DNA from: Candidatus Latescibacterota bacterium
GTDB lineage: Bacteria; Latescibacterota; UBA2968
Assembly (NCBI GenBank): GCA_038279365.1
Contig: JAYODI010000018.1
Location: 24,680 to 68,526 of the forward strand
Length of the DNA: 43,847 bases
Direction of reading: 5' to 3'
How positions within the stretch are numbered: position 1 is the stretch's first letter; each line of letters starts with the position of its first letter. Below the pieces are notes generated by a model, which made no database searches, was not told where the DNA came from, and worked only from the letters and a program-made list of their open reading frames with translations. Made by a program: the position numbers and the translations under genes. This document shows positions 30,692 through 39,630 of the stretch, one piece after another.

Positions 30692-31975
30692 GTGTCCAAT
30701 ATACCCACACATATCGCCAAATTAATCGAAAATACCACATTGCAAAATGACTGGGATGCATCTGTTCAGGCCATACCCAACCCTTTGCCATTCCTTCAAC
30801 CACAGGCCATCCAAGAATACGGCGAGTGGACGGCACTTCCCCAAGATGCCATCGACTTCGTCATTCAAACAGCACAAAAAATTGCCTCAGATCCAAATCT
30901 CACAAAACTGGCTTGGCATGCACACCGCATCCTCTTTGTCGATAAATCGCCAGATCGTGGTGCAACCCGAAATTGGCCCCTTCTCACTCCCATACTCAAC
31001 GAATATGGGGGCGCATTTTATTTGCTCATTGCCCTTTCGGGTATTCCACACATTCGCGCCATTCATCAATCTCTCAATATCCCTGATGACATTGCCAAAC
31101 TCACCTATCGCGACACCTACGTGTGGGCACAACAATATCACGACATCGGCACACCCATTCAGGACAAATTCACACATCCTTACAAACCACATACCTGGGG
31201 CTTGTGCACCCGCATCCTACCTTGGCTTTTGAGCCATCTTCATGGCGACTTGTATCGTATTGGGCGTTTGCAATTTAAAGTTGGCCCTTATCGCCAACCC
31301 ATACGTGCCTATCGCCATCGTCAAACAGGCCATATGCGCCTCATTGCCGAATCGGATCTTGCCTTTCGTGCAGACGGCAATTTTAATGGGGCCGGTGGCA
31401 TTACCGATAAAAATGCCTGGACATCTCACTTAGAAGAATCCGATACAGAAATCACAGGTACCCTCATTCACCCAAACGGTCACGCCCAACAAACCTCCAT
31501 TACCCTACCTCTTTCAGAATGGGAAGTCGTCATTCAACAAGACGATACCATTCTCGAAATCCACATCCCAGAAGACGGTCCTATGACTTTTGATGCTTGC
31601 GGTGAATCCCTTCGACACGCCGCATTATTTTTCCCAAAACATTTTCCAGACCGTCCGTTTAAGGCCATTTGCTGCACATCTTGGTTACTCGATCCTACCT
31701 ACCAAACACTCCTCTCCGAAACCTCTAACATCGTGCGTTTCCAACGTGAATGTTATCTCTTCCCCCTCAACACGCGTGGTCATCGCAGTGGCCTTGAACG
31801 CATCTTTGGCCCCTACACACACGATCTTTCCACTGCACCACGAAACAGCAGCATGCGACGGGCCGTGCTTGATCACCTCCAATCTGGAGGTGTCCTCATC
31901 AGCGGCGGGTGCTTGCTCTGGCCAGAACACCTCACCCAATGGGGTACGCAAACTTATCTTCGCCAAATAACTTAA
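30692..31975 (+). CDS. Acyltransferase-domain protein (DUF5596/GNAT-like C-terminal)
   Basis: YRIGRLQF, LEIHIP..GP, FF...FP, CTSWLLDP, SNI.RFQ, SSMRRA motifs; start uncertain. Confidence 0.75.
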   Translation: MSNIPTHIAKLIENTTLQNDWDASVQAIPNPLPFLQPQAIQEYGEWTALPQDAIDFVIQTAQKIASDPNLTKLAWHAHRILFVDKSPDRGATRNWPLLTPILNEYGGAFYLLIALSGIPHIRAIHQSLNIPDDIAKLTYRDTYVWAQQYHDIGTPIQDKFTHPYKPHTWGLCTRILPWLLSHLHGDLYRIGRLQFKVGPYRQPIRAYRHRQTGHMRLIAESDLAFRADGNFNGAGGITDKNAWTSHLEESDTEITGTLIHPNGHAQQTSITLPLSEWEVVIQQDDTILEIHIPEDGPMTFDACGESLRHAALFFPKHFPDRPFKAICCTSWLLDPTYQTLLSETSNIVRFQRECYLFPLNTRGHRSGLERIFGPYTHDLSTAPRNSSMRRAVLDHLQSGGVLISGGCLLWPEHLTQWGTQTYLRQIT

Positions 31976-32030
31976 TCAGCAACACCCTTTATCACATATT
32001 TACCACCTGCACAGATCACCAAAACTCCTG

Positions 32031-32216
32031 TGTGATCGGCATCACACGAAACGCGTTTTTTGTGTGCATCTTTCTCAAAATATCCGCAAAAATCTTTCCC
32101 AACGTGATACCCATCACAAGCACAACCCCTTTCCCATCTGATATTCATCACATCACAACAACACAATCCATTCATAAATAAAAATCATATTTTACCTACG
32201 CGTGAGCTGCATCACG
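32031..32216. promoter_or_regulatory. Four CRP/FNR-family-like palindromic operator sites
   Basis: TGTGATCGGCATCACA 32031, CGTGATACCCATCACA 32103, TCTGATATTCATCACA 32137, CGTGAGCTGCATCACG 32201. Confidence 0.6.
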
Positions 32217-32345
32217 CTCTAATCATATCATCCAGTCTATCTTTGGTCACAACATGTTAACAACTCTTTTAGCACGCACAAAGGCTGTTTACATCAAGAC
32301 GTCCTTTGTGATTGCTAAAAACAGTCATCTGTCGGGAGGAACACC

Positions 32346-34556
32346 ATGAACACAACATCACAAGACAATGAAACAAATCTCGTGCGCCGCAGTGGCCGTT
32401 TTATTTTGGGCCTGCTGTTGGCGCTATCCCTTACACCAAGCACATATGCCACATCACTTGACCTTAACAATTACAACACGCTCAATGACGTTGTCGTGGC
32501 CATCAAAAACAATATGCCCGATGAAAACAGCGAACAATACACCATTCCCAGTCAACAAGTGCGCGATGATTTAAATCAAGTCGTCATCAACATATTAAAT
32601 GGTCAAGATCCTCAAACCATCATTTTGCCCGCATCTTTGCAAAACCACTACACACTTGCAGAGGTTGTAGATAACGGCCAAACTTATGTTGTGCTTGCCG
32701 AAACGGTTGATGGTGACAATAACGGCGTAGCAGATCGTGGCTGGGCAACTGTTATCATCAACAACACGCTCAATGCCAAGACCCTTTCAATAGATATTCC
32801 ACACCCACTCAACGACGCTGGCACACCAGAGCAGGGTATTGCCATTTTCAAGGGTACTCAGGCACGCACCTTTGTTATGTCGGGTGCACATAGAAACGCC
32901 AACAATGCTCTGGCACCTTGTTTTAATGACCCCAACTACAAAATTGCCGATGCCGCGCATAACGAAGCACACACCTTTCACGCCATTGTTGAGGCCATTG
33001 ATCAATATTATGACAGCCAATTTCAAACCCATACGGCCTTTCAGTTTCATGGCATGGGTGAAGATTCAAGCAATGGCTTAGATGTTTATATGACCCACGG
33101 CACCAAACGCGTACCATTGCCCAACAGTGTCATAGACCAAATCAAGACAGACCTCAACATCTCACAACCCACATGGGATGTGGCCATTCCAGGTGATCCA
33201 ACAGAAGCCGATCTCAATGGCATAAGCAACTTACAAGGTCGTTTGCTCAACGATGTGCATCCCAATGCCATTTGCGAAATACGCGCCTACAGTTATACCG
33301 GTCAGTTTGTACACATTGAACAAATCAGTGATGCACGTGATGCCAATGCTTATGACGAATGGATTCACGCCCTCAATCATATCAACTTCAATATTGTTCC
33401 CCCACCGCCAGGTTATTGGATCACGTCTCCCAACGGTGGCGAAACCTGGGAAATAGGCACACAAGTAAACATCACTTGGAACACGCAAAATTCACCAGAA
33501 GATGTAGATATCGCACTCTACAAAAATGGTTCTCACGAAAAAACCATCACCAATGCCACTGCCAATGACGGGGAATATACTTGGGTCGTCGATGGCAATC
33601 TCACCGAAGGTGCCGATTACACAGTACGCATCAAAAATACCACCGATACCGATAACCGCGATTATAGCGATTTTACATTCGCCATCATCGAAGGCAACAA
33701 CACCCCCCAAATCACAGTGCTGGGCCCCAATGGAGGTGAATCTTGGGATTTGGGTGCACAAGTTCTCATCACCTGGTCATCCGTCAATGTCGATGGCCAG
33801 GTCAAAGTCTCACTACACAAAAACGGTGAATTTTATAAAACCATTGCCAACACCACAGAAAACGATGGCGAAATCACCTATGATGTTCCCATGGACATCG
33901 ATCCAGATGGTGATTATACGGTGCGTGTGCGCAGTGTAGACAACACCAGCATCAAAGACTTTAGCGACAACACATTTGCCATTGATGAAGGCAATAACAC
34001 ACCAAACATCACCGTATTGAGCCCCAATGGGGGGGAAATATGGACACAAAACCAACAAGCCATCATCACCTGGTCATCCAATGCCATTCCCGGTTTGGTC
34101 AAAATATCCCTTCACAAAAATGGCTCTTATTACAAAAATATTGCCGTTACCACAGAAAATGATGGGGAATATATCTGGAATGTGCCAGCATATGTCTCGG
34201 CAGGCAATGAATACACAGTGCGTGTGCGCAGCGTAGATGATATTGGCATTGTAGACTTTAGTGATGCCACATTCTCTGTCCAACTTGCAGGGCAAGCACT
34301 CACCACCATAGACAATTACCCCAATCCTTTCAACCCCGAAACTGTCATTCGCTACCAATTGCCCAATGCAACCCATGTAGAACTGGTGGTCTTTAATATG
34401 ATAGGGCAACAAATCACACAACTGGTCAACCAAACCCAAAACGCAGGTTATCACGCCATACACTTTGATGCACGGCACTTGGCCAGTGGCCAATACATAT
34501 ACCAAATTCGAGCCAACAACCAAACCACAACGGGCCGTATGTTGCTCATCAAATAA
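32346..34556 (+). CDS. Secreted protein: putative hydrolase domain + 3 Ig-like (PNGGE) repeats + T9SS/FlgD-like C-terminal sorting domain
   Basis: GGAGGA RBS; signal peptide; three IT..PNGGE.W...ITW repeats with approx. 297-nt period; NYPNPFNPET.I.Y.L...LASGQY.Y...M.L.K C-terminus. Confidence 0.88.
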   Translation: MNTTSQDNETNLVRRSGRFILGLLLALSLTPSTYATSLDLNNYNTLNDVVVAIKNNMPDENSEQYTIPSQQVRDDLNQVVINILNGQDPQTIILPASLQNHYTLAEVVDNGQTYVVLAETVDGDNNGVADRGWATVIINNTLNAKTLSIDIPHPLNDAGTPEQGIAIFKGTQARTFVMSGAHRNANNALAPCFNDPNYKIADAAHNEAHTFHAIVEAIDQYYDSQFQTHTAFQFHGMGEDSSNGLDVYMTHGTKRVPLPNSVIDQIKTDLNISQPTWDVAIPGDPTEADLNGISNLQGRLLNDVHPNAICEIRAYSYTGQFVHIEQISDARDANAYDEWIHALNHINFNIVPPPPGYWITSPNGGETWEIGTQVNITWNTQNSPEDVDIALYKNGSHEKTITNATANDGEYTWVVDGNLTEGADYTVRIKNTTDTDNRDYSDFTFAIIEGNNTPQITVLGPNGGESWDLGAQVLITWSSVNVDGQVKVSLHKNGEFYKTIANTTENDGEITYDVPMDIDPDGDYTVRVRSVDNTSIKDFSDNTFAIDEGNNTPNITVLSPNGGEIWTQNQQAIITWSSNAIPGLVKISLHKNGSYYKNIAVTTENDGEYIWNVPAYVSAGNEYTVRVRSVDDIGIVDFSDATFSVQLAGQALTTIDNYPNPFNPETVIRYQLPNATHVELVVFNMIGQQITQLVNQTQNAGYHAIHFDARHLASGQYIYQIRANNQTTTGRMLLIK

Positions 34557-34573
34557 CAAAAACACCATCATCC

Positions 34574-34615
34574 ATATAAAAAAACCGCCAATGATTATTG
34601 GCGGTTTTTTTATAT
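34574..34615. terminator. Intrinsic terminator
   Basis: ATATAAAAAAACCGCCAAT...ATTGGCGGTTTTTTTATAT. Confidence 0.88.
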
Positions 34616-34627
34616 ATCAACACCCTA

Positions 34628-34656
34628 TTGACATGCACCATGCCACACATTACCTT
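34628..34656 (+). promoter_or_regulatory. Putative sigma70 promoter of the selenoprotein/ABC operon
   Basis: TTGACA-N17-TACCTT, then AAGGAG RBS and ATG 34680. Confidence 0.6.
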
Positions 34657-34679
34657 ACACCCCAACAAAGGAGTGATCT

Positions 34680-35636
34680 ATGGCAGACCCATTGCCCAAC
34701 CGTGGCAACCCAGAAAACGATGACTTTGCATCGGGCCCCAATATCGGCGAACCCGTTCCCACATTTACGCTTCCCAACCAATGGGGTGATCTCGTCACCT
34801 ATGTACCCAATGGCACACATCAATCACTCATCCTCTTTCATCGCAGTGCCAATTGGTGAGGCTATTGCAAGGTTCAGCTCGTGGAGCTGCAAGACAAACT
34901 TTCATACTTTGAACAAAACGACATCTTACCCTATGCCATCAGTTATGATTCTGTAGAAAGCCTCCGCTCATTTGCCCAAAAACACAACATCACTTTTCCA
35001 ATTCTTTCAGATACAAACAGTGAGGTCATACGCCAATTCAACATCTTCAACCACCTGATACCCGAAGGCCATCATTGGTATGGTGTACCATTTCCAGGAA
35101 CCTACATGGTAGATGCCAATGGCATCGTCATTGACAAATATTTTTATGCCGATTATGGAGTGCGCGACTCAGTTGCACGCATGCTTCAAAAAACATTTCA
35201 AATTGACAGCCGAGGACTTCCTGTTCAAACTGTAGAAAATAGCGACATCAAAGCACGGGCCTATCTGTCATCACACACCGTGCGTCGTGGTCAAGTGCAA
35301 ACCTTTACATTGGACATTTCACTCAAAAAAAATAGACACATCTATGCCCCACACGTCTCGGGTGGCTACATCCCCATATCGGTCACCTTTGACCCAATTG
35401 AGGAAGTCACTTTTGGCTCCATCGTTTACCCAACACCTCTACAAAAAGAAATCCTCAGAGAAAAGGTGCTTGTCTACGAAAAACACCTTCGCCTGACCAC
35501 CACCGTGCAAAACAAAAAACGCGAAAATTTTACACTCCGAGCACACTTAGATTATCAAGCCTGTGATGATCACGAATGTTATATGCCTCAAACACTCACC
35601 CTTGAACTGCCCGTCACCTATTTGGAAAATGTCTAA
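34680..35636 (+). CDS. Probable selenoprotein: peroxiredoxin-like (AhpC/TSA, UxxC) domain fused to a DsbD-N-like domain
   Basis: AAGGAG-ATG 34680 reads MADPLP...GPNIGEPVPTFTLPNQWG...LFHRSANW-TGA(34857)-GYCKVQLVELQ, in frame with track ORF 34881..35636; C-terminal YQACDDHECYMP. Confidence 0.85.
34860..34892 (+). promoter_or_regulatory. Candidate bacterial SECIS hairpin
   Basis: CAGCTC-GTG-GAGCTG stem-loop whose G-starting loop lies 21 nt after the UGA; possible lower pairing TTG/CAA. Confidence 0.6.
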
Positions 35637-36613
35637 TGGCATATCACCCCTCTGACATAATCATTCAAAATCTACGCAAAACGTATGTTGTTCCCGAACG
35701 AGATACAGGTCTGGGTGCCGCCATCAAAAGCCTCTTTGTGCGCAACACCCGAGAAGTTGAGGCCGTAAAAGACATCACATTTACCGTTGAACCAGGGGAA
35801 GTCGTTGGCTTTTTAGGACCCAATGGCGCAGGAAAAACCACAACGCTCAAAATGTTCTCTGGCCTCCTTCACCCCACCTCTGGCAACATATCGGTTCTCG
35901 GTTACAAACCCTTTGATCGCAAAAAAGAATTTCTCCAACAAATCACCCTCGTTATGGGCCAACGCAACCAACTCATTTGGGATATTCCAGTTGGTGATTC
36001 ATTTGAACGCAACCGCGCAATCTACCGCTTGCCGACAAACGAATATATTCAAACACGCAACGAGCTCACAGATCTCCTCGACTTAGGTGACCTCCTCTCA
36101 AAACCTGTTCGCAACTTGTCTTTGGGCGAGCGCATGAAATGTGAAATTGCCGCCGCGCTTTTACACCGCCCACAAGTACTCTTCTTAGACGAACCCACCA
36201 TTGGCCTTGATGTTACCATGCAACGGCGTATTCGTACCTTCATTGGTGAATACAACAAACGTTACAATGCCACTGTTTTGCTCACTTCTCACTATATGGC
36301 CGATGTAGAAGCGCTGTGCAAACGCGTCATCATTATTCACCACGGGCAGTTGCTCTTCGACGGCGCACTCAAAGAACTCGTCAACCGCTTCTCACCCCAC
36401 AAAACCATTGTGATCGATCTCGATACCGACCACGCCGATCTTTCCTCCTATGGTGATATCATCACCGCACAAGGCAGTCGTATTACCTTGCGCGTACCCA
36501 AATCAGAAACCGCAACCGTAACGGGGCGCCTCCTTGCCGATTTACCCGTCATCGACCTTACTGTAGAAGATCCACCCATTGAAGAAGTGATTGAACAGGT
36601 GTTTTCTATGTAA
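35636..36613 (+). CDS. ABC-2 type transporter ATP-binding protein
   Basis: GPNGAGKTT, LSLGE signature, LFLDEPT, TSH; TAATG coupling to the upstream gene. Confidence 0.93.
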   Translation: MAYHPSDIIIQNLRKTYVVPERDTGLGAAIKSLFVRNTREVEAVKDITFTVEPGEVVGFLGPNGAGKTTTLKMFSGLLHPTSGNISVLGYKPFDRKKEFLQQITLVMGQRNQLIWDIPVGDSFERNRAIYRLPTNEYIQTRNELTDLLDLGDLLSKPVRNLSLGERMKCEIAAALLHRPQVLFLDEPTIGLDVTMQRRIRTFIGEYNKRYNATVLLTSHYMADVEALCKRVIIIHHGQLLFDGALKELVNRFSPHKTIVIDLDTDHADLSSYGDIITAQGSRITLRVPKSETATVTGRLLADLPVIDLTVEDPPIEEVIEQVFSM

Positions 36614-36758
36614 AATGCCAAAAATAAAACCAGTGAAACGGCAAAAGTAAAACCAGTGAAATGCCAAACGTGAAACGGCAAAAATAAAACCTAAAAACCA
36701 ATAAAAAACCAACCACGCAATCCAATTACACGATTGATTCGTTTGCCGTTTGCCGTCT
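36614..36758. repeat. Intra-operon repeat element (23-nt direct repeats; GTGAAACGGC / GTTTGCC arms)
   Basis: GCCAAAAATAAAACCAGTGAAAC and GGCAAAAGTAAAACCAGTGAAAT in tandem; GTTTGCCGTTTGCCG at about 36741. Confidence 0.7.
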
Positions 36759-36799
36759 CTCAAGAATCACATATCCATCACCCCCCTATACACCAAACC

Positions 36800-37603
36800 A
36801 TGAAACATTATCTCAACATCTACTGGGCGTTTTTCAAAACCACGCTCGCGGTTCAGTTTCAATACCGCGCAGCCATGAGCATATGGATGATTGGGCGGGT
36901 GTTAGAACCCGTTGTCTACTTGGTTGTTTGGGCCACAGTTGCCCAAGCACGCGGCGGTGTCGTGGGCAATTACAATGCCGCCGATTTTGCAGCCTATTAC
37001 ATCGTACTTATGATCGTCAACCAATTTACTTTCACATGGATCATGCACGAATATGATTATCGCATTCGCCAAGGGGCACTCTCCGTCTTACTTCTTAAAC
37101 CCATTCACCCCATACACTCAGACATTGCCGACAACATCTCATACAAAATTCTTATGTCGGTCATCGTTTTTCCCACAGCCATTTTCCTTTATGCCGTATT
37201 CGACCCCAATTTAATATTTCATCTCCATCTATTCGCCCTCTTTTTGCTATCACTCACACTTGCATTTTTTATGCGCTTCTTTGTTGAATGGACCTTGGCA
37301 CTTACAGCTTTTTGGACCACACGCAATGAGGCCATTAATCAAATGTATTTCACATTGGGACTCTTCCTCTCAGGGCGCATTGCCCCAATAGATCTATTGC
37401 CCAACTTTGCCCAACATATAGCCAACGCACTGCCCTTTCGCTGGACCGTTGCATTTCCGGTAGAACTCATGTTGGGGCGATTGTCTCACGACCAAATCAC
37501 ACATGGGTTCACAATGCAAGCCGTTTGGCTCACCGTGAGTCTCATCTTACTCAAACTCGTTTGGCGCAGCGGCATCAAAAAATATTCTGCCGTAGGATCT
37601 TAA
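36800..37603 (+). CDS. ABC-2 family permease (DUF990-like)
   Basis: QYRA, IRQGALS..LLKP, LSG.IAPIDL.P, Y.AVG C-terminus. Confidence 0.88.
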   Translation: MKHYLNIYWAFFKTTLAVQFQYRAAMSIWMIGRVLEPVVYLVVWATVAQARGGVVGNYNAADFAAYYIVLMIVNQFTFTWIMHEYDYRIRQGALSVLLLKPIHPIHSDIADNISYKILMSVIVFPTAIFLYAVFDPNLIFHLHLFALFLLSLTLAFFMRFFVEWTLALTAFWTTRNEAINQMYFTLGLFLSGRIAPIDLLPNFAQHIANALPFRWTVAFPVELMLGRLSHDQITHGFTMQAVWLTVSLILLKLVWRSGIKKYSAVGS

Positions 37604-37606
37604 GTC

Positions 37607-38392
37607 ATGCATTTTTTCTCACTCATCTGGACATTCTTTCGCATTGGCATCTTGAACGAATTGGCCTATCGCGTCAACTTTTATGTCCAACTCCTCCAAT
37701 CACTTCTCAGCTTAGGCACTGCCATTGCCGGTTTGGCCATTGTCTTTTCACACACCAACGAATTGGGTGGTTGGAAAGCTGTAGACATTTTGGCCTTGCT
37801 CGGTGTGTTTATGTTTGTCGGTGGCATGATTCGCTTGGTGATTCAGCCCAGCATGTCACAACTCATGGAAGACGTGCGCCAAGGCACACTCGACTTTACG
37901 CTCACCAAACCCTGCGATGCCCAATTGCTCATCAGCATCTCCCAAATTCGCATCTGGCGTATCACCGACATTTTTTTGGGCTTGGGTGTTTTACTCACCG
38001 CACTCATCTATCGAGGCACCCATGTGGGCCTCACAGACATCATGCTTTTTATACTCGTCCTATTCACTGGTGGTGCCATCATTTACAGTTTTTGGCTGAT
38101 GTTGGCCACACTCACTTTTTGGTTCTTACGCATCGAAAACATTCTCGTCATCTTTCAAAGCATGTATGAAGCTGGGCGCTGGCCCATTGGCATCTACCCA
38201 CATTGGTTGCGTTTTGTGCTCACCTTTTTGGTGCCCGTCGCTTTTGCAATCACAGTTCCAGCAGAAGCCTTATCGGGTCGCCTTACGACCAACAGCATTG
38301 TCACATCTATTTTACTCAGCATATTTATGCTTATTTTTTCACGTTGGTTTTGGAAACGTGGTGTCAAAAATTATTCAGGTGCTTCTGCATAG
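37607..38392 (+). CDS. ABC-2 family permease (DUF990-like)
   Basis: AYRVNF, GGW, VRQGTLDF.LTKP, WPI.IYP, YSGASA C-terminus. Confidence 0.88.
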   Translation: MHFFSLIWTFFRIGILNELAYRVNFYVQLLQSLLSLGTAIAGLAIVFSHTNELGGWKAVDILALLGVFMFVGGMIRLVIQPSMSQLMEDVRQGTLDFTLTKPCDAQLLISISQIRIWRITDIFLGLGVLLTALIYRGTHVGLTDIMLFILVLFTGGAIIYSFWLMLATLTFWFLRIENILVIFQSMYEAGRWPIGIYPHWLRFVLTFLVPVAFAITVPAEALSGRLTTNSIVTSILLSIFMLIFSRWFWKRGVKNYSGASA

Positions 38393-38400
38393 GAGAAACC

Positions 38401-39630
38401 ATGAAAAAACGAAACACCTTTCGTGTTGCCATTCGGCAATTTGATCCCTTTGCTTCAGCCATTCAAAAACAGTGGGCCACATTTTGTGACACATCAGGCA
38501 TCAATTTAACATTAGAAGCCATTGAACTGGACTTGCACCCGCTTTATGAAACCCTCTTTGAAAACGATGGTCTTCAAAAGGGTGAATGGGATGTGGCATT
38601 TGTCTGCACCGATTGGCTTGCCGAAGCCCATCAAAGCAATGCGCTCTTGGATATTCACACACATTTGCAAACACACCCACCAACAAATTACCCCAACGGA
38701 TGGACAGATTCCCTGCTGCGTTTGCAAACCTTCAACACGCACATTCTCGGCTTACCCTATCACGACGGACCTCAATGTCTCATTTATCGCCAAGACCTTT
38801 TTAACGATCCATCCGAACAACAAGCTTACCAACAAAAATATGGCAAACCGCTCACCATTCCTCAGACATGGGATGACTTTGTCCAAGTCGCACGCTTCTT
38901 CACCCGCCCCAACGCCAATTTATACGGCACCGTCTTTGCCGCCTATCCCGACGGACACAACACCGTTTATGACTTTTGCATTCAACTCTGGACGCGCGGT
39001 GGCGAACTTTTTGATGCCTCCAACCACCTCACCCTCAACACGCCTCAAGCCATAGACGCACTCACCTTTTATCGCAACATACTCAATGACACATCGGCCA
39101 TACATCCACAAGCACGTGAATTTGACTCGGTCAAAAGTGGCCTTGCATTTGCCAATGGCAACATTGCCATGATGACCAACTGGTTTGGGTTTGCGGCCAT
39201 GAGCGAAACCATTGCCGAAACAAAAGTTAAAAACAAAGTGGGTGTGGCCAACATCCCGCACGCCCCAAATTGTGACAGTGCATCACTCAATGTCTATTGG
39301 ATACTCGGCATCGGGTCGGGAAGCCCACATGCAGATGTGGCCTATTCATTTCTACAACACTGTGCATCTGCCCCCCAAGACAAACTGCTCACCCTCGAAG
39401 GCGGCATTGGTTGTCGCAAATCAACGTGGGCAGATGACGAGGTCAACACCACCATTCCCTTTTACCACCTGCTCGAACCCATTCACAAAAATGCCCGCGA
39501 ACTACCACGCCTAACCCACTGGGCACAACTGTCCGAAATCATTGACCAACTTGTGCTCAACACCATCAACACAGATCGCCCCATTGCCGACCTTGTGCAA
39601 GAAGCACAGAAAATAGCCAATACACAGTAG
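38401..39630 (+). CDS. Sugar-type extracellular solute-binding protein, no evident signal peptide
   Basis: AGGAG RBS; GLPY....L.YRQDLF, PQTWDDF..VARFF, F..G..AM..NW. Confidence 0.85.
   Translation: MKKRNTFRVAIRQFDPFASAIQKQWATFCDTSGINLTLEAIELDLHPLYETLFENDGLQKGEWDVAFVCTDWLAEAHQSNALLDIHTHLQTHPPTNYPNGWTDSLLRLQTFNTHILGLPYHDGPQCLIYRQDLFNDPSEQQAYQQKYGKPLTIPQTWDDFVQVARFFTRPNANLYGTVFAAYPDGHNTVYDFCIQLWTRGGELFDASNHLTLNTPQAIDALTFYRNILNDTSAIHPQAREFDSVKSGLAFANGNIAMMTNWFGFAAMSETIAETKVKNKVGVANIPHAPNCDSASLNVYWILGIGSGSPHADVAYSFLQHCASAPQDKLLTLEGGIGCRKSTWADDEVNTTIPFYHLLEPIHKNARELPRLTHWAQLSEIIDQLVLNTINTDRPIADLVQEAQKIANTQ

Follow-up and report, generated by a model that had tools for sequence, protein, structure and literature searches.

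The window analysed here, a stretch of 43,847 nucleotides from a Candidatus Latescibacterota bacterium (assembly GCA_038279365.1, contig JAYODI010000018.1, positions 24,680 to 68,526 of the forward strand), contains a genuine but mis-annotated selenoprotein gene at positions 34680 to 35636. A TGA codon interrupts its reading frame at the first position of a thioredoxin-style active site, and sequence comparisons make it nearly certain that the product is a real selenoprotein in which this codon is read as selenocysteine (Sec, U). The predicted protein joins an AhpC/TSA domain with a UxxC motif to a domain resembling DsbD_N, and the explanation that accounts for the locus as a whole, a single gene encoding a UxxC reductase with a built-in DsbD_N relay, appears probable. 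The continuity of the gene, the conservation of the TGA, the Sec machinery of the genome, the covariation of a downstream hairpin and the folds of both domains are the observations on which this explanation is built.

The gene is delimited by the following elements, all numbered as positions of the window:

34680 to 35636, plus strand, selenoprotein coding sequence of 318 residues with U at position 60 and the stop codon TAA at 35634-35636 (from sequence and translation)
34668 to 34673, plus strand, ribosome-binding site AAGGAG, 6 nt 5' of the ATG at 34680 (from sequence)
34857 to 34859, plus strand, TGA predicted to be read as selenocysteine (U60), first position of W-U-G-Y-C and the sole in-frame TGA of the gene
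34866 to 34868, plus strand, TGC encoding Cys63, second position of the UxxC redox motif

From the ATG the frame runs through 59 sense codons, meets the TGA and continues for 258 further codons to the TAA. An earlier note on this DNA, made from its letters alone, had described the AAGGAG and the ATG that open the 59 codons, as well as the TGA at the first cysteine position of W-C-x-x-C with 258 codons beyond it, and both can be read directly from the sequence and its translation. Another TGA (34674-34676) lies in frame directly 5' of the ATG, so the N-terminus cannot be longer, and the orthologues are colinear with residues 1-318 and carry one TGA. The listing of open reading frames (ORFs) made for the window splits the locus into two, one of 59 codons and one of 251 codons that starts at GTG 34881. 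Other frames in the window that are interrupted by TGA in a Cys- or Sec-like context were considered and look like out-of-frame noise.

The letters of the TGA recur in independent assemblies. A metatranscriptome contig (X13, 34793-35024) spans the codon and is identical to the window, although a contig from an RNA library is not proof of transcription, and X6 (34798-35010), a DNA contig of another study, bridges the codon with zero differences. The contigs of four other public runs hold no alternative letter at 34857-34859. The RNA-library contigs leave 34560-34792 and some later stretches uncovered, which says nothing about transcription there.

The genome to which the window belongs is equipped for the synthesis and insertion of Sec. 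It holds selA (592 bits), selB (379 bits), selD (367 bits) and a tRNA-Sec (68 bits), all above their curated cut-offs, and these are clustered outside the window on a single contig (C34, about 31069-36920; loci L001, L009, L014 and L018). The selD gene itself carries one in-frame TGA, which probably makes the selenophosphate synthetase a selenoprotein as well. The genome thus has the Sec machinery, two independent contigs match the window's TGA rather than TGC or TGT at 34857, and homologues bear Cys or TGA at the corresponding codon (see below), which removes the three grounds on which the earlier note would have abandoned its proposal.

Conservation of the TGA extends across many phyla. Orthologous motifs were recovered from 97 of 98 related loci, and in all 99 instances TGA occupies the same codon. 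Within the window's phylum, a whole-genome search that read through stops found the gene in 18 of 168 genomes, and every best match has a TGA; among the 17 same-phylum loci other than the window's own, the codon lies within W-U-x-x-C in 16. Two loci of this phylum look decayed: L041 (genome G066) lacks the motif and contains several stops, and L043 (genome G120) has TGA twice in a row at the motif (U-U) along with further stops. In a scan of one genome per species the gene matched at least 601 stretches; 569 of these were confirmed, 80 were retained, and all 82 motif instances in the 80 loci carry TGA. Judging from the names given by depositors, the 80 loci come from Acidobacteriota (Vicinamibacterales, Bryobacterales and Thermoanaerobaculia), Chloroflexota, Armatimonadetes, Binataceae/'Deltaproteobacteria', Gemmatimonadetes, Acidimicrobiia, Poribacteria and Latescibacterota. 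Three of them duplicate same-phylum loci, and the removal of identical stretches left 93 distinct sequences. The gene can also be multiplied: a genome named Longimicrobiales contains three tandem UxxC-DsbD_N gene copies, each with its own TGA and hairpin (L090:3013-6630), and locus L052 has a second copy just upstream.

Cysteine forms do exist. One acidobacterial order has a match to the gene in 62 of 151 genomes, and among the 30 loci fetched from it 26 have TGA and four have TGC or TGT. The alignment of 19 full-length database homologues shows W-C-x-x-C in 17 and W-W-x-x-C in two, and the expectation of the earlier note that codon 60 would be Cys or TGA in homologues is thereby borne out. 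Of 120 database protein matches listed, 20 have Cys at the position, five Trp (P0059, P0064, P0072, P0074 and P0076) and one Leu (P0060); the other 94 begin just past the motif, mostly as entries of 251-257 residues starting with Q-L-V-E-L-Q, which is the pattern expected when gene callers stop at the TGA. The truncation of this protein by gene callers had likewise been foreseen in the earlier note. Within the UxxC-DsbD_N fusion subfamily the predicted Sec forms prevail and Cys is exceptional.

Downstream of the TGA lies a short hairpin that is a candidate for the selenocysteine insertion sequence (SECIS):

34875 to 34889, plus strand, candidate bacterial SECIS hairpin CAGCUC-GUG-GAGCUG in the Q-L-V-E-L codons, its stem beginning 15 nt past the UGA

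The apical loop of a bacterial SECIS is found some 16-37 nt from the UGA and has a G in the loop, and both the position and the size of the hairpin agree with this. Across the 93 distinct sequences 91.1% of cells are paired, with compensatory changes at three of seven pairs. The third pair (27-37) is GC in 79 sequences, AU in 12 and GU in two, and the fourth (28-36) is CG in 87 and UA in six; neither is ever unpaired. The outer seventh pair (24-40), which corresponds to 34874 with 34890, is present in most other lineages and unpaired in the window's copy; it is GC in 51 sequences, CG in 25, UG in one and something else in 16, which include the window's own clade. Covariation scores 0.194; shuffled alignments give 0.083, with 0 of 500 reaching 0.194, and sliding the partner columns gives no more than 0.107. 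Loci with the A-U variants are placed by their depositors in several phyla, and these variants hence do not represent one inherited change. Taken together the comparisons suggest that the hairpin may act as a bacterial SECIS.

Some results weigh against this role. Folded alone, the hairpin of the window is unremarkable (-7.2 kcal/mol, z -1.47, with 13 of 200 shuffles as stable; z 0.04 in a 44-nt context), and Rfam matched no family in the whole window at gathering thresholds; around the hairpin, with E allowed up to 10, it gave only two chance-level matches. Moreover, the peptide Q-L-V-E-L is conserved in the Cys forms too, where two of four loci keep all seven pairs, and the pairing is surely due in part to the codons used for this conserved peptide. 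The number of paired positions out of seven is 7, 7, 5 and 4 in the four Cys-form loci, and among 33 Sec forms it is seven in 25 and six in eight; in this small sample of four loci the figures fit a relaxation of pairing in the Cys forms.

Two explanations would do away with the selenium altogether. If the TGA were a true stop, the locus would be a pseudogene, the product of a sequencing error, or a pair of genes made up of the 59-codon fragment and the 251-codon gene from GTG 34881. TGA does ordinarily terminate genes in this genome and gene callers give exactly the 251-residue product (database entry P0002, which is 100% identical to the C-terminal part of the window's read-through protein). 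It is hard to see, however, why a stop should occupy the same codon in 99 of 99 motifs across phyla with the protein conserved on both sides of it. Splitting the gene would moreover divide the thioredoxin fold halfway through its active site, the Cys homologues run on without a break, the downstream hairpin covaries, and the independent contigs carry the same letters; a true stop is therefore very improbable. An alternative genetic code, in which TGA would be read as an ordinary amino acid such as Trp or Gly, deserves even less credence. TGA serves this genome as a regular stop: it terminates 338 of the 1557 ORFs (22%) of at least 400 codons, and the release factor RF2 gene prfB is present above its cut-off, which together exclude a reassigned code. 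The long ORFs of the window are also not interrupted by TGA. What such a code would accommodate are the Trp residues at the position in five of the 120 database homologues and the small number of TGA stops in the window, where TGA closes only two of the 32 ORFs that reach 250 codons, as against 22% of long ORFs genome-wide. The latter is probably a local fluctuation, that is, sampling noise, and the Trp forms are most simply explained by gene callers that used table 4 and so rendered the TGA as Trp, which is probably their origin.

The read-through protein consists of two domains, the second of which contains a further pair of cysteines:

34743 to 35132, plus strand, AhpC/TSA domain (peroxiredoxin/TlpA-type thioredoxin fold), residues 22-151 (PF00578, E 4.5e-25; 88.4 bits, cut-off 26)
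35280 to 35603, plus strand, DsbD_N-like (immunoglobulin-like) domain, residues 201-308 (PF11412, E 2.7e-12; 47.2 bits, cut-off 25)
35562 to 35579, plus strand, C295 (35562-35564) to C300 (35577-35579), the C-x4-C pair in Y-Q-A-C-D-D-H-E-C-Y

The earlier note had recognised both domains, together with a Y-Q-x-C....C motif, and the Pfam matches above the gathering scores and the presence of C295 and C300 agree with it. For structural analysis an alignment of 76 sequences was assembled from the window's protein and 75 of 86 read-through orthologues, 11 near-duplicates having been removed by hand. The AlphaFold2 model calculated with this alignment predicts two domains with confidence (predicted local distance difference test, pLDDT, 93.4; predicted template modelling score, pTM, 0.88). 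Residues R55, S56, W59, U60, C63, Q66, L67, E69 and L70 are invariant in the 76 sequences. The C-domain (model residues 179-313) matches the N-terminal domain of ScsB (6c29_A) with Z 13.8 and a root mean square deviation (rmsd) of 2.2 over 126 residues. This fold match came from VIA-align only; a sequence search of the PDB with the C-domain gave no matches at E up to 1. None of the NCBIfam models reaches its cut-off for the read-through protein.

These features can be assembled into a mechanism. The ribosome would read the UGA at 34857-34859 as Sec by means of SelA, SelB, SelD and tRNA-Sec, assisted by the hairpin about 15 nt downstream. Given its thioredoxin-style U-x-x-C and the missing P-x-x-x-T-x-x-C, the N-domain is read as a thiol-disulfide (selenosulfide) oxidoreductase whose Sec60 would attack and whose Cys63 would resolve, and such reductase rather than peroxidase chemistry is likely. 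The C-x4-C pair of the C-domain would exchange electrons with the U-x-x-C through a selenosulfide between Sec60 and Cys295 or Cys300. In the DsbD system nDsbD exchanges with the thioredoxin-fold domains cDsbD, DsbC and CcmG; domains of this type in DsbD and ScsB receive electrons from one thioredoxin-fold domain and pass them on to others. The fusion of two domains of such partner types suggests a built-in hand-over, and the protein may thus constitute a two-centre relay in one chain, as the earlier note had proposed; by analogy, direct electron exchange between the two centres is favoured, with less assurance than the chemistry of the N-domain.

The same selenoprotein could instead be a selenol peroxidase, with Sec60 reducing peroxides, Cys63 resolving the selenenic acid and the DsbD_N-like domain recycling the enzyme. 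Several results count in favour of this and thus against a reductase. The closest solved folds of the N-domain (model residues 17-176) are true peroxiredoxins of the BCP/PrxQ and AhpE types (Z 20-21.5), headed by AhpE (5id2_A; Z 21.5, rmsd 1.8, 148 residues aligned) and followed by BCP-type structures (Z 20-21), and such proteins are also the top matches in Foldseek; ResA (Z 16.5), DsbE-like proteins and TlpA (Z 12.3) match less well. The best NCBIfam match, below threshold, is a thioredoxin-dependent thiol peroxidase (57.8 bits, cut-off 140), and selenols react fast with peroxides, as in the glutathione peroxidases, which reduce peroxides directly. In peroxiredoxins the T-x-x-C aligns with the C-x-x-C of other thioredoxin-fold proteins, and the Sec of the window's protein occupies the Thr position of the peroxiredoxin signature (H-R-S-A-N-W-U-G-Y-C). 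The signature itself, P-x-x-x-T/S-x-x-C, is missing from S56-A-N-W-U60-G-Y-C63, which has no Pro four residues before position 60. Unlike true peroxiredoxins, the protein carries its redox pair U-x-x-C within one helix turn, as do thioredoxin and TlpA. In addition, Sec-containing true peroxiredoxins have TxxU, with Sec at the other position, according to a 2026 review (PMC13188914), and the Prx-like1 protein of Caulobacter, a putative counterpart of the window's protein, was without detectable peroxidase activity (PMC3322552). On this evidence the peroxidase is unlikely. A different objection concerns the relay. The two domains might exchange no electrons at all, and the DsbD_N-like part could be a substrate-binding or docking module or serve a different partner. 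This would sit well with two of the 76 sequences, L047 (3049-3999) and L049 (3019-3933), which keep W-U-x-x-C and have lost both C-terminal cysteines. It would also suit the flanks of the gene, since Pfam found no shared partner and no DsbD_TM/CcdA gene among 143 flanking ORFs, selected heuristically by length, of 40 loci, and both results detract from the built-in relay. C295 and C300 are nevertheless retained in at least 90% of the 76 sequences, which span many phyla, the fusion is kept wherever the gene is found, and the model has a confident fixed arrangement of the two domains, as reflected in its pTM. In solved DsbD systems, furthermore, the DsbD_N fold exchanges disulfides with thioredoxin-fold partners. 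Separate tasks for the two domains are accordingly a doubtful alternative to the UxxC reductase with a built-in relay.

The window's protein fits the Prx-like UxxC class of selenoproteins by its PF00578 domain and UxxC motif. The 2026 review lists the 'Prx-like thiol:disulfide oxidoreductase' (PF00578, UxxC/UxxU) among the high-confidence predicted selenoproteins (PMC13188914), and Prx-like UxxC selenoproteins are tabulated for Geobacter, Desulfotalea and Syntrophus in another source (PMC1794560). UxxC thioredoxin-fold proteins are thus a known selenoprotein class, as the earlier note had stated, and the Prx-like UxxC proteins have been recognised since the mid-2000s. The likeness extends to Sec as the first residue of a thioredoxin-style UxxC, to the existence of Cys homologues, to truncation by annotation and to a presumed function in thiol-disulfide exchange. 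Unlike the class as it is described in the passages covered, the window's protein adds a C-terminal DsbD_N-like domain with its CxxxxC pair. The proportions differ as well: Sec forms outnumber Cys forms in the fusion subfamily, whereas for 'Prx-like 1' the Global Ocean Sampling (GOS) study gives 225 Sec and 2,740 Cys sequences, with Cys forms far commoner (PMC2398784). The fusion to DsbD_N goes unmentioned in the portions of the open selenoprotein literature that were covered, subscription papers and PDF supplements such as the GOS Figure S1 on fusions lying outside this scope. Within the same scope selenoproteins are paired with DsbD only in the 2026 review, where a different, rhodanese/DsbD-like protein (TsoB) is concerned (PMC13188914).

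The C-domain resembles the DsbD/ScsB alpha domain in its PF11412 match, its 6c29_A fold, the two cysteines in Y-Q-x-C...C-Y and its location beside a thioredoxin-fold domain. The cysteine spacing is C-x4-C in the window's protein and C-x5-C in E. coli nDsbD. Unlike in DsbD and ScsB, there is no DsbD transmembrane domain in the protein, where Pfam did not find PF02683, or next to the gene; the single DsbD_TM gene of the genome sits on another contig. Also unlike DsbD and ScsB, the domain is fused to its presumed partner, the nucleophile of that partner would be Sec, and a signal peptide is missing. An analogy comes from Caulobacter, where ScsB, which has an alpha domain with the fold type of the C-domain, passes electrons to TlpA, PrxL and ScsC and keeps the Prx-like1 protein reduced (PMC3322552).

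The location of the protein in the cell appears to vary within the family. With its start fixed by the upstream stop, the window's protein has no hydrophobic N-terminal stretch, and the hydropathy check thus agrees with the earlier note, which had seen no obvious signal peptide. The same-phylum orthologues, which have an N-terminus of the M-A-E-x-L-x-N-x-G-D-P type, and several loci named as Chloroflexota are also signal-less. Most Acidobacteriota-type orthologues have an obvious signal peptide, as judged by a crude hydropathy measure and a heuristic choice of start. From these N-termini the family is presumably exported in the main, with a cytoplasmic form in the window's lineage, and the window's copy, lacking a signal peptide, would work in the cytoplasm. 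If so, a domain of the DsbD-alpha type would gain a cytoplasmic role that has not been described before.

Tentatively, the AhpC/TSA(UxxC)-DsbD_N proteins may form a distinct, very widespread and Sec-dominated subfamily, each member a self-contained selenosulfide relay, that moved to the cytoplasm in the window's lineage and in some lineages named as Chloroflexota. No new kind of system is thereby opened, the class having been predicted since the mid-2000s, and the points of note are modest: Sec dominates in the fusion subfamily, the partner of the DsbD-alpha type is built in, and the form of this lineage is signal-less. The fusion would be a natural example of the electron hand-over between a DsbD-alpha and a thioredoxin-fold domain within one chain, with selenium as the nucleophile, and the signal-less form here and the exported forms elsewhere make the same module comparable in two compartments. 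There is also a practical consequence. In public databases the protein is represented almost only by a 251-residue stump that lacks the active site (94 of 120 matches), so that annotation and the reconstruction of redox pathways in uncultured lineages miss a selenoenzyme.

The gene is followed immediately by genes for components of an ATP-binding cassette (ABC) transporter, all identified with Pfam:

35636 to 36613, plus strand, ABC transporter ATPase gene, its ATG overlapping the selenoprotein stop codon in TAATG (35634-35638)
36734 to 37603 and 37607 to 38392, two ABC-2 permease genes (ABC2_membrane_6), 3' of the ABC ATPase gene
within 38203 to 39630, solute-binding protein gene (SBP_bac_1), 3' of the permease genes

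When compared with the other loci by tblastn, the adjacency of the selenoprotein and ABC genes recurs only in same-genus and same-family loci (L028 and L030/L044), and the ABC genes are probably lineage-specific operon neighbours and not conserved partners. Sulfatase genes adjoin in about five distinct loci and luciferase-like monooxygenase genes in five, numbers too small to build on.

Two further elements lie between the gene and its upstream neighbour:

34628 to 34633, plus strand, -35-like hexamer TTGACA (from sequence), with no matching -10; a promoter is not supported
34578 to 34611, plus strand, intrinsic-terminator-like hairpin with an A-run, an 8-bp GC-rich core stem and a T-run, 3' of the gene for a 736-residue secreted protein

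Of the promoter described in the earlier note only the TTGACA stands, since a sigma-70 scan of 34400-35800 found no qualifying -35/-10 pair 5' of the selenoprotein gene on the plus strand. The hairpin at 34578-34611 has a minimum free energy of -19 kcal/mol (z -6.28), and none of 200 shuffles folds equally well; a pattern scan did not pick it up. Its terminator-like build suggests that it ends the upstream gene and marks the selenoprotein gene as a transcription unit of its own. It looks bidirectional. The upstream gene (32346-34556) encodes the 736-residue protein, which has Kre9/KNH-like immunoglobulin domains and a Por_Secre_tail, the sorting domain of type IX secretion.

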